The translations under genes were made by a program, and so were the position numbers. This document shows, piece after piece, positions 5,853-41,881 of a stretch of 64,000 bases of DNA (positions within the stretch are counted from its first letter, which is position 1; the number at the start of each line of letters is the position of its first letter). Below the pieces are notes generated by a model. That model was not told where the DNA came from, did not search any database, and saw only the letters and a list, made by a program, of their open reading frames with translations. This DNA comes from Candidatus Heimdallarchaeota archaeon (GTDB lineage Archaea > Asgardarchaeota > Heimdallarchaeia > Heimdallarchaeales > Heimdallarchaeaceae). The stretch spans positions 1-64,000 of the forward strand of contig JAHLWR010000009.1 of the NCBI GenBank assembly GCA_019057815.1. The letters run 5' to 3'.

Positions 5853-5949
5853 GAACTTATAACTGTTTTGTGAGTATTAGTGCTTCACCTCATTTTCTAC
5901 AATTCAAATTAAGAATAAAAGGTGAAAAAACCAAAAAAGATATACTAAG

Positions 5950-6495
5950 CATTTACATATGGTATTCTGATAATTCTACGGTTGCTAATAACACGTGTAG
6001 TAATAACATCCATGGCATTTATCTTTACTTTTCTGGGAGTTCTATCGTTACATATAACATATGCAACAACAATAGTGATGGTATCTATCTTCTCTCTTCT
6101 GATTTTTGTGTCGTTACTTACAATCTTCTACAAGAAAATAAAAGCTATGGAATCGTGCTTTCAGATTCTGATAATTGTACTATTCACCGTAAACCTTTGT
6201 AGACAACAATCTAGGATTAACTTCTCAAGCTTTTGATGAAGGTACTGACAATACTTGGTATGATACTGCAACACAAGAGGGTAACTATTGGTCTGATTGG
6301 TCAGGTACAGGTTCTTATTCTATTGATGGTTATACTGGTTCAGAAGATCTCTATCCTCTCGATGAACCCACTGTATATTCAGTTGAATCTTCTACAGATG
6401 AAAATCGATTAAGCTTCACATTTACTCTCCTAATGTTAGTTTTTCCCTTAATGCTTTCAAGGATAATCTCAAAGAAGTCCAAGAAAAAAACATAA
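5950..6495 (+). pseudogene. 5'-truncated, frameshifted beta-helix surface protein gene (C-terminal half)
   Basis: Homologous to 282..2069 and 37860..38870; 1-nt deletion near 6192 (caccgtaaacc vs caccataatacc); second frame continues through EGNYWSDWSG to TM and KKSKKKT stop at 6495; no signal peptide. Confidence 0.85.
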
Positions 6496-6610
6496 ACTCA
6501 TCGGTTGAATGGGTTCTAAGTAGAAGTTAAATCCAATTTTAATAAATAGTTAAAATTATTGTGTTGAATAGTAAAAGCATACCTATTTATACATTTAAGA
6601 TATTACTACA

Positions 6611-7492: not shown

Positions 7493-7594
7493 AATCTCTT
7501 TTTTCAATCTTTTCCTTTTTACTACTTTTTCGCAATAGAACGATTTAAACTTCTAATTATGTTACTTCAATTATTTTCAAATTGGAAGTATATA

Positions 7595-7767
7595 TGACAT
7601 GAATTTTGTACAAATCCTTTAGAAGTGCTTAGGGCACATCATGGGTACGCCACATACCCTCCTACACCGCCCACACTCCCTTGGGGGAATGCTTACGGTT
7701 TCGCTTTTGGTTTTTTGTTGGATGTAGATCCGAGGATCACCATGAAGTTGGTGCATATCTACAATCC
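7595..7767 (-). ncRNA. Predicted ~170-nt structured RNA of unknown family, copy A
   Basis: GC-rich island in AT-rich DNA; stems conserved with compensatory changes versus copy B; TATA-like TTGATATA (7799-7792) 24 nt upstream of GGAUUGUAG. Confidence 0.7.
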
Positions 7768-7828
7768 TTAAAAGTATAATCTATACTACCCTATATCAAC
7801 ACAACAAAAATGTACACAAAGCTTCTTA
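7595..7828 (-). mobile_element. Non-autonomous ~234-bp element (MITE-like), copy A, carrying a structured RNA
   Basis: Reverse complement ~82% identical to 39043-39274; ends TAAGAAGCTTTGTGTACA...TGTACAAAATTCATGTCA; TA on both flanks; no ORF. Confidence 0.8.
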
Positions 7829-7853
7829 TAAGAGAGTGTGACATTATGGATTT

Positions 7854-29872: not shown

Positions 29873-31381
29873 CTATTTTTTCTTTGCTTTCTTTGAGATT
29901 ATCCTTGTGAGGAATAAAGGAACAATTGAAAGTAGTAGAGTTATTAAAACTATTTGTGGATATTCAACTATTACAGGTTCTACAAGAGGATATAAGTCAA
30001 CTGAGTTAGCATCACCATCAATAGAATAAGAACCTATCCCTGACCAATCTGACCAGTAGTTACCTTCAAGTGTTGCAGTATCATACCAAGTATTGTTTAC
30101 GCAATCATCATACGCTTGAGAAGTTCCTTCTAGATTGTTGTCTACAAAGGTATTATGGTGAATAAGATTATTATCAGAATCGTATATTAAGTATACTCCA
30201 TATCCTTCATTTTCTTGTAGAAGATTGTAAGTAACAACACAAAAATCAGAAGACCAAAGCAAGATGCCATAGTAGTTATTGTTGCACGTGTTGTTTGCAA
30301 CAGTCGAACTACTAGAACAGTAAAGCCTAATACCTTCACAGTAGTTATTGTTGCATGTGTTGTTTGCAACAATAGAACTACTAGAAGAGCAAAGATAGAT
30401 GCCCATGCCATTGTTGCTGCACGTGTTGTTTGCAACCGTCGAACTCCCTGAAGACCAAAGATAGATGCCTCTGTTGTTATTGTTGTTGCATGTGATGTTA
30501 ATAATAACTGAATATGTACAGTAGCAGAGAGATAGACCAGTTGTAGCGTTGTTTAATATTTGGTCACGTACTGTAACATTAGTACAATTGACTAATTTTA
30601 ATTGCCCATAGACAGGCTCAGAAATAATAATGGAGTCAAGGTTAGTGTAAAAACCCAGTTTTTTACCATTCACCCAATTATTTTCAACAATATATGATAG
30701 GTAGGCATCAATTGTATCTTCGCTTATACATAAACCACAATTAGTAAAAGTGTTGTTTGCAACATTAGAACTACCAGAATAATGAAGCCAGATACCATAG
30801 TTGTTATTGTTGCTGCATGTGTTGTTTGCAACATTAGAACTACCAGAAAAGACTAGATAGATGCCTCTGTTGTTATTGTTGCATGTGTTATTTTCAACAT
30901 TAGAACTACCAGAAGACCAAAGCACGATGCTGTCATCAACATTGTTGTTACACATGTTGTTTTCAACAGTAGAATTTCCAGAATACTTAAGCTTGATGCC
31001 GTCATAGCCATTGTTGCTGCACGTGTTGTTAATGACAGTTGCTGTGCCATAAACTACTTCATCGATATAAATACCATACTCTTCTACGTCAACATAGCAG
31101 TTACAAACAATGAAATATTTTGTTGTTTCAGTAATATAAATACCATAATCTTCTGTTGTTGTAATATTGTAACCATCAATAACATAAGGATCTATTTCTA
31201 TTCCTGTTCCTGGGAAAACGTTAAAATCGCTATCAGAAGTAATGTATATTGGATCATGAGGTGTCAACTCTAACGAAGTAGACCTATAATTATTCTCTTC
31301 AACAGCACTTTGTGCGTTGAAATTCGTTGCGTAGATTGACAATGTCAGTATTAGTAGAATTAATATTGTTCTCTTTTTCAT
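29873..31381 (-). CDS. NosD/PbH1 beta-helix surface protein
   Basis: Close paralogue of 282..2069; signal peptide MKKRTILILLILTL; TM + KKAKKK tail. Confidence 0.9.
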   Translation of the reverse strand: MKKRTILILLILTLSIYATNFNAQSAVEENNYRSTSLELTPHDPIYITSDSDFNVFPGTGIEIDPYVIDGYNITTTEDYGIYITETTKYFIVCNCYVDVEEYGIYIDEVVYGTATVINNTCSNNGYDGIKLKYSGNSTVENNMCNNNVDDSIVLWSSGSSNVENNTCNNNNRGIYLVFSGSSNVANNTCSNNNNYGIWLHYSGSSNVANNTFTNCGLCISEDTIDAYLSYIVENNWVNGKKLGFYTNLDSIIISEPVYGQLKLVNCTNVTVRDQILNNATTGLSLCYCTYSVIINITCNNNNNRGIYLWSSGSSTVANNTCSNNGMGIYLCSSSSSIVANNTCNNNYCEGIRLYCSSSSTVANNTCNNNYYGILLWSSDFCVVTYNLLQENEGYGVYLIYDSDNNLIHHNTFVDNNLEGTSQAYDDCVNNTWYDTATLEGNYWSDWSGIGSYSIDGDANSVDLYPLVEPVIVEYPQIVLITLLLSIVPLFLTRIISKKAKKK

Positions 31382-31775
31382 TAAATCACACTTAATTAAA
31401 CTCTTTATCGAATATATATTTTATGTAATGGATTCTTCTGTTAATAATCTTAATGAGTTACATTTATTTCTTTATTTATTTTCATATTACACTTTGGTTG
31501 GTTAGAAACATTAGCTTAAAATGATTGCTTTTAATTTTCTTATTCTTTTTTGAAGAGTATTAAAATATCTTGAAGAATAAAATAATGCAAAAAAAGCTTT
31601 CAAGAAATACAATTGGAGATGCTTTAACACATTAAATACAAAATGATTAATCTCACATGATTTGACCGTCGTTTTTACCGAATATTTAAAAGCGCTTTCT
31701 ATAATCATATTAGATTAGTCAATTATTTCTCACGAATATTGAAATCAAAGGTATATACATTAGAGGATAAGTTCT

Positions 31776-37519: not shown

Positions 37520-37660
37520 TAGTTGTTAGTTTTTTTGTATCTTATTTTCTTTTGAAACCTTTTCTGATATCTTCTTTTTCCTTTTATCAAAAAGAATCAT
37601 TATACCTGCTATTCCACCAAGAACTAGTAGAAAAAAAATAAAAGATAATAACTACAACCA
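37478..37660 (+). repeat. Junction repeat copy 1 (zf-PARP 3' end plus degenerate lctP 3' end)
   Basis: Aligns to 38919-39042 (+39275-39289) and 41699-41881. Confidence 0.85.
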
Positions 37661-37859: not shown

Positions 37860-38870
37860 CTATCCTTCCTTTGTCTTCTTTGAGATTATCCTTGTAAGTA
37901 TTAAGGGAACTACTAACATTAAGAGAGCAAATGTGAAGCTTAATTGATTTACATCTGTAGTAGATTCAATTGTGGTGTGTTCAGTTGTAGTATATTCAGC
38001 AGGTTCATCGAGAGGATATAAATCAACAGAGTTAGCTTCACCATCAATAGAATAAACACCTGTTCCCGACCAATCTGACCAGTAATTCCCCTCTTTTGTA
38101 GCAGTATCATGCCAATAGTTGTCAGTACCAGTATCACAAGCTTGGGATGTTCCTCCTAGAAAGTTGTCTACAAAGGTATTATGGTGAATAAGATTATTAT
38201 CAGAATCGGATGCTAATGCTACTCCACATTCTTCATTTTCTTGTAGATGATTGTAAGTAACGACACAAAAATCAGAATCGCCAAGCACGATACCCAAGTC
38301 GTTGTTGCTACATGTGTTGTTGGAAGCAGTCAAACTATCAGAAGAGGAAAGAAAGATGCCTGCCCAGTTATTGCTGCAAGTGTTGTTTACAACAGTCGAA
38401 CTATCAGAAGAGGAAAGAAGGATGCCACAGTCTTTGTCGTTGCACATGTTGTTGGAAACAATCGAACTCCCAGAAGTGTCAAGCTTTATACCATAGATGT
38501 TATTGTTGCATGTGTTATTGATGACAATTGCTGTTCCATCAGCTACATCATCGATATAAATGCCATATAAGACCGCGTCAACATAACAGTTACGAACAGT
38601 AAAATATCTAGTTGTACCAGTAATATAAATACCAACTCCACAAGTTGTCTTAATATAGTAACCTTCAATGATGTAAGGATTCTCGACAGATCCTGCACCA
38701 GGAAAAACCTCAAAAAAGCTATCAAAAGTAATAGAAATAGGATCATGCAGTGACAACTCTAGTGAAGTAGATCCATTATCATTCTCTTCTACAGAACTTT
38801 GTACATTGATATTCGATGCGTAGATTGGCAATGTCAGTATTAGTAGAATTACTATTGTTTTCTTTTTCAT
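37860..38870 (-). CDS. Short NosD/PbH1 beta-helix surface protein
   Basis: Same N-cap, repeats and EGNYWSDWSG cap as paralogues; lacks the central module; TM + basic tail. Confidence 0.9.
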   Translation of the reverse strand: MKKKTIVILLILTLPIYASNINVQSSVEENDNGSTSLELSLHDPISITFDSFFEVFPGAGSVENPYIIEGYYIKTTCGVGIYITGTTRYFTVRNCYVDAVLYGIYIDDVADGTAIVINNTCNNNIYGIKLDTSGSSIVSNNMCNDKDCGILLSSSDSSTVVNNTCSNNWAGIFLSSSDSLTASNNTCSNNDLGIVLGDSDFCVVTYNHLQENEECGVALASDSDNNLIHHNTFVDNFLGGTSQACDTGTDNYWHDTATKEGNYWSDWSGTGVYSIDGEANSVDLYPLDEPAEYTTTEHTTIESTTDVNQLSFTFALLMLVVPLILTRIISKKTKEG

Positions 38871-38918
38871 TAAATCACACTTAGTTAAACTCTTTATTTT
38901 ATATATGTCTTGTGCAAC

Positions 38919-39042
38919 GAAGAAGATGACAGAAATAGGATTTTAGGTTTCTTGAAAAGATAGTTGTCAGTTTTTTTAATCTTATTTTCTTTTGAAACCT
39001 TTTCTGATTTCTTCTTTTCCCTTTTATCAAAAAGAATCATTA
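38919..39042 (+). repeat. Junction repeat copy 2, interrupted by the mobile element (resumes 39275-39289)
   Basis: GAAGAAGATGACAGAAATAGG...AAAGAATCATTA | element | TATCTGCTATTCCTC. Confidence 0.85.
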
Positions 39043-39274
39043 TAACATGTTTTTTGTACATTTTTTTGGTGTTTAAATAGGTCGGTGTAAATTATACATT
39101 GAAGGATTGTAGCTATGCACCAACACATGGTGATCCTCGGGGTTACATCCAACAAACACTAAAAAGCGAACCGCAAGCATTTTTGTAAGAAAATGTGGGC
39201 GGGGTAGGAGGGGATGTGGCGTCCCCATGATGTGCCATAGGCACTTCTAAAGAATTTGTACAGAATTCATGTCA
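39043..39274 (+). mobile_element. Non-autonomous ~232-bp element (MITE-like), copy B, carrying a structured RNA
   Basis: 18-bp imperfect TIRs (TAACATGTTTTTTGTACA / TGTACAGAATTCATGTCA, 14/18); interrupts a sequence that is intact at 37597-37615 and 41818-41838. Confidence 0.85.
39104..39274 (+). ncRNA. Predicted ~170-nt structured RNA of unknown family, copy B
   Basis: TTTAAATA (39072-39079) 24 nt upstream; multiple stems with covariation versus copy A; G-U pairs define this strand. Confidence 0.7.
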
Positions 39275-39293
39275 TATCTGCTATTCCTCGAAG

Positions 39294-39396
39294 TCTTGTT
39301 ACTGCTATGTCCATAGATTACAAATTATTCCTGATTTCACGATGTGGTTAAGAATTAAAGAAAGGTAAGACAAACAAGGAATCAGTAGAAATGCTA
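39294..39396 (+). pseudogene. Degenerate ~100-bp internal fragment of an MMPL gene
   Basis: TCTTGTTACTGCTATGTCCATAGATTAC...GGTAAGACAAACAAGGAATCAGTAGAA aligns to 32534-32639; contains an in-frame stop. Confidence 0.8.
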
Positions 39397-39969: not shown

Positions 39970-40141
39970 TTGAAACCCTTGTCTAATTAAAAGCATGTTC
40001 ACTATTCATTAGAGCATGTAAGTATTTTGATACGTATACAAAATTTTCATACACATAAGTATTGGTAACCATCGTCAGTAAATTGTTTCTGACAACGATG
40101 ACAGTTATAAAGGAAAAAGAGAAAGAGAAGATATTTCCGAA

Positions 40142-41650
40142 TTAATTGTATTGTTTTCTCTTACGATTTAGAGAGATACCTCCTATGAGTATCAATGGAA
40201 CTATGAATGTAAAGAGAGCAAACGATGACTGCGAAGGGGTTATATATACAGCAGGTTCATTTAGAGGATAGAGATCTTCTGTACGTGAAATACCTCCAAT
40301 AGTATAGGTTTCATTTCCCGAATAGTCTGACCAGTAGTTACCTTCAAGTGTTTCAGGATCATACCAAGTATTGTTTGTTCCATGGTCCCACGCTTGGGGT
40401 GACGAAGAATTTTGATTATTATCTACAAAATTGTTATGATGAAGGATGTTGTTGTTAAGTTTATCTAATGTGGGGTAACGAAATCCGTATCCTAGTACTA
40501 TCCCACTTCTCTCATTTTCTTGTAATAGATTGTAAGTAATAAGACAAGAATTAGAATTATCCAGAAAAATACCCCCCATGTTGTTTGAACAGACGTTGTT
40601 AGTAAGAACTACTTCAGTAGAATATCCCAACCAAATGCCCCCGTTGTTGTTTGAACAAGTGTTATAAGTAAGAGTACAACCAGAAGAATAAATTACCCAA
40701 ATGCCCTCCAAGTTGTTTGAACAGATGTTATTAGTAATAGTTGTACTTTTACACCAACGAAGTATCAACCCCACTGAAGTATCAAACAATTCTTGGTTAC
40801 TGACTACCACTTCTGTACAGTTAATTAAGATTAGTTGACCATAAATGGGTTTATCGAGAGTAGTTCTAAATAGATTAGTGTAAAAACCTAACAGTTTTCC
40901 ATTCACCTTATTATCTTCAATAGTATAGGAAAGATAATCTTCAACATTTGACTCGGATATTGATAATCCATTATTAATGAAAATATTGTTGGTAAGAATA
41001 GTACCACCCGAACGAGACAATCCGATGCCAAATAGGCGGTTGTTTTCACAAGTATTTGTGCTTAAAATATTATTATAAGAAGAATAAAGAACTATGCCCT
41101 CCCAGTTATTGTTTTCACAAGTATTCTTGCTTAAAATATTATTATTCGAATATCGAAGTTGTATGCCATAATAGTTGTTTGAGCAAGTATTCTCACTCAA
41201 AGTATTATCATTTGAAGAATAAGGAACAATGCCTACCTGATTGTTTTCACAGGTATTGTCTGTTATTGTTGCCGTACCATCAGCAACGTTATCAATACAA
41301 ATACCATAACCATGTTTTCCAACATCTACATAACAGCTACTAATAACAAAACACTTAGTTGTATAAGCAATATAAATACCAATAGCGTAATACTTTGTTA
41401 TATTAGTAATACCACATGTGTTCGATGTTGTAATATCATATCCCTCAATAATGTAGGGATCTTCTATTGTTCCTGTTCCTGGAAAAACCTCAAAACCGCT
41501 ATCATTTGTTATAAATATCGAATCATGAGGTGTCAACTTTAATGAAATAGGTCTAAAATCGTTCTCTTCTATAGCATTTTGCACATTAATATTCAATGTG
41601 AAGATTGATAATGTTAATATTAGTAGAATAATTATTGTTTTCTTTTTCAT
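40142..41650 (-). CDS. NosD/PbH1 beta-helix surface protein
   Basis: Signal peptide MKKKTIIILLILTL, GIxLxYSxNNILSxNTCENN repeats, EGNYWSDYSG, TM + RKRK. Confidence 0.9.
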   Translation of the reverse strand: MKKKTIIILLILTLSIFTLNINVQNAIEENDFRPISLKLTPHDSIFITNDSGFEVFPGTGTIEDPYIIEGYDITTSNTCGITNITKYYAIGIYIAYTTKCFVISSCYVDVGKHGYGICIDNVADGTATITDNTCENNQVGIVPYSSNDNTLSENTCSNNYYGIQLRYSNNNILSKNTCENNNWEGIVLYSSYNNILSTNTCENNRLFGIGLSRSGGTILTNNIFINNGLSISESNVEDYLSYTIEDNKVNGKLLGFYTNLFRTTLDKPIYGQLILINCTEVVVSNQELFDTSVGLILRWCKSTTITNNICSNNLEGIWVIYSSGCTLTYNTCSNNNGGIWLGYSTEVVLTNNVCSNNMGGIFLDNSNSCLITYNLLQENERSGIVLGYGFRYPTLDKLNNNILHHNNFVDNNQNSSSPQAWDHGTNNTWYDPETLEGNYWSDYSGNETYTIGGISRTEDLYPLNEPAVYITPSQSSFALFTFIVPLILIGGISLNRKRKQYN

Positions 41651-41698
41651 TTAATCACACTTAATTATACTCTCTATCTAATATATATCTTGTGCAAT

Positions 41699-41881
41699 GA
41701 TGAAGATGACAGAAATAGGATTTTAGGTTTCTTGAAATAATAGTTGTCAGCTTTTCTGTATCTTATTTTCTTTTGTAACATTTTCTGATTTCTTCTTTTT
41801 CCTTTTTTCAAAAAGAATTATTATACCTGCTATTCCTCCTAGTGCTAGTAGAAGAGCTATAAACGACAATATCCACAACCA
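41699..41881 (+). repeat. Junction repeat copy 3 (degenerate zf-PARP 3' end plus intact lctP 3' end)
   Basis: 41699-41740 reads DEDDRNRILGFLK* versus EEDDRKRISGFMK* of the zf-PARP gene. Confidence 0.85.

Follow-up and report, generated by a model that had tools for sequence, protein, structure and literature searches.

A segment that carries no gene occurs twice, in opposite orientations, in the 64,000-nt stretch of archaeal DNA analyzed here (the window), and the question it raises is what such a segment is and what maintains it. An earlier note on this DNA had recognized both occurrences, estimated their identity at about 82%, and proposed that they carry a promoter and a structured guide-like RNA. 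Both segments were found where the note had put them, with limits that differ by one base in our analysis. Copy B occupies 39044–39275 on the forward strand (232 nt) and copy A occupies 7594–7827 on the reverse strand (234 nt), and BLASTN aligned the two at 82.5% identity over 240 columns. The genome of the window (48 contigs, 3.7 Mb, 95% complete) was found to contain about 10 full copies, nine of them intact and one degenerate, as well as 2–3 fragments. Every copy lies at a different site, and the copies are 78–86% identical to the window copy, a degree of repetition far beyond chance. They fall into two subfamilies; copy A belongs to subfamily 2 and copy B to the other. We refer to these elements as minis.

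The limits of copy B are sharp in alignments of 10 and of 25 copies, and they were fixed exactly by empty sites. The left flank of copy B is the tail of a repeated gene with paralogues in the window, and alignment identified two paralogous sites lacking the insertion, at 37600–37615 and 41821–41836 (both on the forward strand). Each reads TTAT|ACCTGCTATTCC, that is, TTAT followed by a 13/16 match to the predicted guide of copy B. The empty sites (...ATTAT|ACCTGCTATTCC) differ from the filled site (...ATTAT, the element, then ATCTGCTATTCC) by exactly 232 nt, which shows that the element is mobile. A cold-seep contig, drawn from the public contigs of four metagenome runs, also spans the copy B site minus the 232 nt; being a single low-depth contig, it is a weak hint when taken alone. 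Insertion occurs after TTAT without target duplication. An AT shared by both junctions (TT-AT and TC-AT) gives the same picture, a 2-bp crossover at AT being indistinguishable from the absence of duplication. The two junctions of copy B, ATAA on the left and ATAT on the right, have no more than AT in common. Because the filled and empty sites differ by 232 nt, the TA duplication of IS630/Tc1-type elements, which predicts a difference of 234 nt, is ruled out. The paralogous genes themselves are composed of 66–69-nt (22–23-aa) tandem repeats. Their 3′ tails and the sequences downstream are conserved, and the genes lie at 400–1600, 5900–6500, 29900–31500, 37860–38950 and 40140–41730 of the window. 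Copy B is located in the apparent remnant tail of one of them.

Both ends of the element carry conserved features. On the left, copy B is flanked by TTAT (39040–39043, forward strand), the transposon target and the predicted TnpB target motif (TAM), which is shared by the minis and the tnpB elements described below. TTAT is present at this place in 18–19 of 25 minis and xxAT in 22 of 25; for copy A the TTAT target motif lies at 7828–7831 on the reverse strand. The element starts with AA(G/C)... and has the subterminal motif TTTTTTGTACA inside (39050–39060, forward strand), which is conserved in the copies and is an inverted copy of the TGTACA core of the right end. It terminates with ATGTCAT (39269–39275, forward strand), invariant in all 25 copies, with TCAT as the element end; to the right of this there is host DNA, different in each copy. 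At the right end there is a clear hairpin (helix 7); the left end shows nothing more than the 6-bp palindrome TGTACA between T runs, with no IS608-type hairpin. By our reading, 13 of the outermost 17 nt at the two ends match as inverted repeats in subfamily 1, and the outermost bases of the ends are unmatched in subfamily 2. Inside the left end lies a TATA-like box, TTTAAATA at 39072–39079 on the forward strand (TTTATATA in most copies), which is a predicted archaeal promoter. Every copy keeps it at the same place, 24 nt ahead of helix 1, exactly the spacing that the earlier note had given between this octamer and the first paired G (39104). No ORF is conserved among the 25 copies, in which the longest stop-free stretch covers 28–76 codons in differing frames and strands, and none was found in any mini copy, including those of relatives and metagenome loci.

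The centre of the element indicated where it came from. By BLAST, query positions 119–180 match the 3′ ends of 10 tnpB genes in the same genome, all of them ORFs of 415–420 aa. These ORFs, which we call family A, have tails of the form I-N-A-D-V-N-A-A-Y-N-I-L-x-K-x-D-P-x-A-L-P-x-R-x-V-G-G-V-G-G-Y-V-x-Y-P-L-R-V-S, in which I-N-A-D-V-N-A-A-Y-N-I-L is the RuvC-III motif. One family-A protein (P0001, C24:150718-151977) has Pfam matches to OrfB_IS605 and to the Cas12f1-like TNB domain and weakly matches solved chains with IS605 OrfB / OrfB_Zn_ribbon domains; from its sequence we read it as a TnpB in which the acidic residues of RuvC-I, RuvC-II and RuvC-III are present. A single Cys stands at residues ~330–385 in place of the CxxC...CxxC zinc ribbon before N-A-D-x-N-A-A, and the zinc finger appears to have been lost in the family-A clade. 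In total, the genome has 39 TnpB TNB domain matches.

A covariance model built from the minis alone (R1) was used to search the whole genome. It recovered the ten minis at 153–204 bits (203 bits, end to end, for the scaffold of copy B and 202.7 bits for copy A), two fragments and, for each of the 11 family-A tnpB genes, the 3′ end (26–40 bits, E 9e-10 to 4e-5). The other ~25 tnpB genes gave no match in this genome-wide search, and a second tnpB family, family B, scored weakly (13–18 bits) when its loci were searched alone. R1 places helix 1 on GGUUUGUUG...CAACAUC inside the part of tnpB that encodes RuvC-III, and it aligns helices 3 and 5 with the codons for K-x-D-P...G-G-Y-V. Helices 1 and 2 are a remnant of the codons for G-L-L-I...Y-N-I-L in the RuvC-III region of TnpB. 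Past helix 5 the mini and the full-length elements diverge; none of the tnpB elements found resembles the mini in the final ~70 nt of its scaffold, which comprise helix 6 and the right-end hairpin, so that compatibility with family-A TnpB is assumed. A search for relatives of P0001 with one genome per species returned 35 loci, the closest 32 in 'Candidatus Heimdallarchaeota' MAGs and three distant ones in cyanobacteria. All 28 Heimdallarchaeota loci that were searched gave an R1 match at the tnpB 3′ end and the cyanobacterial loci gave none, and the scores of R1 at tnpB 3′ ends range from 20 to 46 bits over the loci of the window genome and the MAGs.

The ends point in the same direction. Family-A elements have a TTAT left flank in 9 of 10 cases. 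Their left end has TGTCAT twice and, at the place of the subterminal motif, TTTGTCAT twice, and their right end has ATGACA twice and ATGACAAA twice before a terminus of ...AATCAT or ...CATCAT. Their TATA box lies ~30 nt before the tnpB ATG in the context GTTTATATAGGG, which is also the context in the minis, with about 30 of 42 positions around the box identical between mini and family A. The TTAT flank, the TCAT end, the TATA context and the inverted subterminal motif are common to the two kinds of element, the inverted end motif being present once in the mini and twice in family A. The frame that encodes the TnpB tail is disrupted in the mini, and the pairing is retained. This homology, the shared ends and TATA box, and the relatives in Heimdallarchaeota MAGs support the earlier proposal of an omega-like guide-RNA scaffold in an Asgard archaeon that is probably linked to a nuclease; the partner it called for is absent from the window, as it had said of any cognate protein, and 11 family-A tnpB genes are found elsewhere in the genome. 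The longer copies it had envisaged, with the same ends enclosing tnpB, were found neither in relatives nor in metagenomes, and the relatives and the metagenome scan also yielded no tnpB-bearing parent with the 3′ half of the mini.

Two other observations concern the tnpB elements of this genome. Family B (C1:96483-97873 and C12:126750-128150) encodes proteins of 419 aa with an intact CxxC zinc finger, and its ends resemble those of the mini: the left one reads CTAT| followed by TTTTTTGTACA, and the right one has a hairpin with a GTAC loop ahead of ...AGCTCAT|. A chimera of family-B ends and a family-A scaffold was considered and dropped, the ends of the mini being about as close to family A. 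At C1:105423-108561 a degenerate mini (reverse strand), a family-A tnpB element (reverse strand) and an intact mini (forward strand) follow one another, and a mini fragment (C1:114840-114913) lies 6 kb beyond. The cluster suggests a hot spot or nested insertions.

The explanation in which we place good, if incomplete, confidence is that the element arose by deletion from a TnpB-only insertion sequence and that its omega-RNA scaffold is used with TnpB in trans. The parent would have been a TnpB-only insertion sequence of the IS1341 type in the IS200/IS605 superfamily. The sequence comparison fits best with an internal deletion in a family-A-like element, which joined the left-end promoter to the beginning of the omega-RNA scaffold. 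Nearly all of tnpB would have been lost in this way, and what remained would be the left end with its TATA promoter, the full omega-RNA scaffold and the right end. Most likely it borrows the TnpB of related elements in the same genome. For what follows we take established TnpB biology as the model (PMC8612924; preprint 10.1101/2023.03.14.532601) and infer by analogy that the mini is transcribed, bound by TnpB, and engaged in cleavage and homing. The TATA box at 39072–39079 would direct a start near 39101–39104, about 3 nt before helix 1. The transcript would comprise the predicted ~175-nt omega-RNA scaffold (39101–39275, forward strand) and read past 39275 into 16–20 nt of the flank, which would serve as the guide. 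TnpB from the ~11 full-length family-A elements would bind this RNA in trans, and the complex would recognize and cut TTAT followed by a guide match. That combination would exist only at the scarless empty site left by excision of the mini, the occupied site having TCAT instead. Recombination of the cut empty site with a sister copy would then restore the mini. If restoration proceeds through TnpB cutting in this way, the mini would be a parasite of the retention system of TnpB elements.

The guides of the minis were examined across the genome. By analogy with TnpB, the guide of copy B is predicted to be the host right flank at 39276–39295 (forward strand), and copy A, whose scaffold occupies 7594–7770 on the reverse strand by its match to R1, has its predicted guide in the right flank at ~7574–7593 on the same strand. 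The sole perfect match to the copy B guide in the genome is its own locus, where it is preceded by TCAT and not TTAT. All ten guides of the genome are unique, and at their own loci the place of the TAM is taken by TCAT. Apart from one chance-level case, no second target flanked by TTAT was found in this genome at 2 mismatches or fewer; at 3 mismatches the search is uninformative in an AT-rich genome. On sequence grounds, unique guides without second targets would fit self-retention and not host regulation.

How the minis move is a separate matter. Just two Y1 tnpA genes are present in the genome, each of them within an IS605 element that has TTAC/TCAA ends. These two autonomous elements (approximately C8:9950-11750 and C4:62350-64150) are 96% identical and carry a Y1 tnpA and a tnpB of 427–429 aa. 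Their ends comprise TTAC on the left, the hairpins CCATG..CATGG and CCACCGCC..GGCAGTGG, and TCAA on the right. Since these ends are unlike those of the mini, the Y1 TnpA of this genome was rejected as its mobilizer. No Y1 gene stands beside any mini or family-A locus fetched (~1.5 kb around the related loci). Serine recombinases were also rejected, genes for them being present at loci that lack the end motifs of the mini. No matching transposase was found for the mini in this genome, which is 95% complete. Because none was found, the minis may persist by TnpB-guided copying. In its strong form, this would mean that they persist and spread mainly or only by TnpB-guided cutting and recombinational copying, as hyperparasites of TnpB, with possible spread into near-identical paralogous sites such as the two paralogues of the copy B site. 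We consider this strong form unlikely. Were it true, a guide-RNA-only element would be a self-sufficient TnpB hyperparasite with an RNA structure selected across genera of Heimdallarchaeia.

The use of TnpB in trans, which we prefer, makes the joint distribution of minis and family-A TnpB relevant. Of 30 genomes searched in the same family, 15, from two genera, carry minis, some of them at least 12 copies; many of the copies in relatives lie at contig ends. All 15 mini-bearing genomes of the family have family-A TnpB, and none of the six genomes without family-A TnpB has a mini. Six further genomes of the family have family-A TnpB without a full-length mini, although one of these (G026) retains a right-end fragment. 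The co-occurrence amounts to consistency only, the genomes being kin and incomplete. In another family of the class, one genome (G048) has a partial copy that is 73% identical, and family-A TnpB is absent from it at E≤1e-60. A mini-specific 31-mer was also used to scan metagenomes, where all 15 loci that it detected were protein-less minis, and a viral collection, where it found nothing.

The RNA fold was tested on aligned copies from about 15 genomes. RNAalifold applied to the 25 copies recovered the stems that had been listed from the two window copies, and a slightly edited version of its structure, with 51 pairs in 7 helices, was scored on 24 distinct rows. Standard pairs are formed in 96.5% of cells. 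Both sides have changed in 11 of the 51 pairs, as compared with a mean of 5.8 in shuffled alignments (0 of 500 shuffles reach 11) and 4–6 pairs in slid controls; this covariation is partly one inherited subfamily split, and independent events are fewer than cell counts. The four double changes reported between the window copies are real and correspond to alignment columns 13:43, 88:97, 89:96 and 119:129, the first of which is C-G in 12 rows and A-U in 11. On the forward strand, helix 1 with the nested hairpin helix 2 spans 39104–39150, with compensatory changes in three pairs of helix 1 and two of helix 2. Helix 3 (39171–39202), CCGC..GCGG with a variable hairpin, has a core in common with the tnpB elements, and its hairpin arms covary both in minis and in tnpB elements. 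The three-way junction of helices 4–6 (39205–39249) has one compensatory pair in helix 5 and two in helix 6; helix 4 is nearly invariant, helix 5 is common to the tnpB elements, and helix 6 is mini-specific. Helix 7, the right-end hairpin GAAUUU-GUAC-AGAAUUC (39252–39268), is paired in 97% of cells and shows wobble changes only. The candidate partners of a terminal pseudoknot, AUGAU (39233–39237) and GUCAU (39271–39275), are both invariant across copies. The scaffold runs to the right end, as the earlier note had it: conservation stops at the transposon boundary that the empty sites fix. As for known RNA families, nothing in Rfam matches the window at gathering thresholds, and at E≤10 the locus gives only chance-level matches outside the element.

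These results show that the base pairing is under selection, and they bear directly on the possibility that the minis are dead deletion derivatives whose RNA-like fold is inherited from tnpB elements and whose RNA now has no function. The copies within the genome are certainly old, being only 78–86% identical to the window copy, and one of them is degenerate and several others are fragments, all of which an inert relic would lead one to expect. However, both-side pair changes exceed the shuffled and slid controls, and the pairing has been retained while the tnpB-tail frame was destroyed. Long motifs and both ends are also invariant across many genomes while loops and linkers vary, and insertion at new sites has continued in at least 15 genomes. 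Inertness thus seems quite improbable.

A function other than retention is another possibility, and here too we see only a small chance. The RNA could be a decoy that absorbs TnpB, or a guide that the host has recruited for gene control in the manner of the TnpB-derived TldR repressors. Minis do outnumber any single tnpB subfamily, and PMC10691335 describes published stand-alone omega-RNAs as having an 'unknown biological role'. But the guides described above all differ and lack a second TTAT-flanked target, arguing against a conserved regulatory target, and fixed orthologous copies with conserved guides beside the same gene have so far not been found. Moreover, by our reading family-A TnpB appears to retain all three RuvC acidic residues, and a decoy role alone would leave the invariant ends and ongoing mobility unexplained.

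The folds might instead act as single-stranded DNA, in the form of top-strand structures recognized by a transposase like the end hairpins of IS200/IS605 elements. Transposition in IS200/IS605 does use top-strand ssDNA, which also predicts strand-specific pairing, and the right-end hairpin beside TCAT resembles the IS608 type. Y1 transposases require only subterminal hairpins, though, whereas seven helices are conserved here over 175 nt, and these coincide with the omega-RNA region of tnpB elements. Many of the conserved pairs are G-U, so that the fold is specific to the strand running from the TATA box to the right end, and several such pairs would be weak as G-T in DNA. A predicted promoter also stands at its fixed distance before helix 1 in every copy. 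We therefore give this reading a slim chance. Slimmer still is the chance that the element belongs to a cut-and-paste or serine-recombinase transposon as an ordinary MITE, with terminal inverted repeats, a 2-bp AT junction and incidental tnpB-like cargo: the inverted match of the subfamily 1 ends, the AT at both junctions (as in an IS607-like 2-bp crossover) and the presence of serine recombinase genes are in keeping with it, but a TA duplication is excluded by the lengths of 232 versus 234 nt, the outermost bases of subfamily 2 are unmatched, the serine recombinase loci lack the end motifs, and in any case the proposal concerns the mode of movement only and leaves the omega-RNA homology standing. 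An identity as an IS110 bridge RNA is unlikely because the homology found is to tnpB 3′ ends.

A deletion derivative that supplies its RNA to TnpB in trans has clear precedents, and the element is not the new class of mobile noncoding RNA that had been suggested as one possibility, since the kind has already been published (PMC10691335; 10.1101/2023.03.14.532601). According to the summary of Altae-Tran 2021 in PMC10691335, stand-alone omega-RNAs work in trans, and Meers et al. (10.1101/2023.03.14.532601) describe PATEs 'which often encode omega-RNAs' and for which TnpB is required in trans. Like these, the mini is mobilized and protein-less, consists of a scaffold and transposon ends, and has effector loci in the same genome. 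The published stand-alone omega-RNAs need TnpB or IscB in trans, and we propose that the mini would do likewise. It differs from them in being archaeal (Heimdallarchaeota-like), in its predicted left-end TATA promoter with a start ~3 nt before the scaffold, in having a short inverted 8-mer at its ends instead of two IS608-type hairpins, and in residing in a genome without a matching TnpA. Another close system is the omega-RNA (reRNA) of ISDra2 TnpB (PMC8612924; structure, PMC10097598), in which the scaffold likewise overlaps the tnpB 3′ end and stops at the right end, the flank is the guide, and the TAM equals the target motif. There is no detectable sequence similarity between the two, however, and the predicted TAM of the mini is TTAT, compared with TTGAT for ISDra2. 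The ISDra2 omega-RNA has a pseudoknot; in the mini the candidate columns are invariant. In archaea, ncRNA from the tnpB 3′ end is known in the form of sense-overlapping transcripts (PMC4615843), and the PATEs of Haloquadratum arose from IS605-type elements by core deletion (PMC3119063). The Haloquadratum/Halobacterium PATEs and IS1341-type elements resemble the mini in this core deletion and in being protein-less, numerous and without target duplication (PMC3119063). The PATEs differ in being defined by near-terminal palindromes, in belonging to another phylum and in having no sequence relation to the mini, and guide-RNA analysis is absent from their description.

The IS607 family combines a serine-recombinase TnpA with TnpB. 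It resembles the mini in a target duplication of 0 or 2 bp, in subterminal motifs repeated at both ends, and in a TnpB with an omega-RNA. In contrast, at the IS607-like loci of the present genome the recombinase is accompanied by a TnpB-like protein of 652 aa, and the TTTGTCAT / TTTGTACA end motifs are missing. TnpB-like ORFs of 642–652 aa are found at C27:145985-148548, C12:124101, C21:21585 and C22:29816, and the one on C27 directly follows an IS607-type serine recombinase gene with in-frame stops.

The mini is a further example of a kind already known in bacteria and other archaea, and it leaves the known picture of OMEGA systems unchanged. Its particular features are the Asgard host, a predicted TATA promoter that abuts helix 1, ends with inverted motifs instead of the two hairpins, a scaffold whose 3′ third is divergent, and the retention of pairing over many genomes. 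It can be regarded as a natural minimal omega-RNA cassette in an Asgard lineage, composed of a predicted TATA box, a scaffold and a guide. The minis also delimit the functional scaffold of an uncharacterized archaeal TnpB clade with a predicted TAM of TTAT. That the pairing has been kept after gene loss in many genomes is indirect evidence that use of TnpB in trans aids survival of the element, and the absence of a matching transposase bears on how TnpB-only elements move.

Fragments of the element were also encountered on their own. No tnpB was found beside the solo left-end or right-end fragments in relatives. Solo right-end fragments of ~50 nt, composed of the hairpin and ATGTCAT without a left part (L081, L082, L083, L084 and L067), come from four relatives (G017, G014, G029 and G026) and may be footprints of partial deletion or of abortive events.
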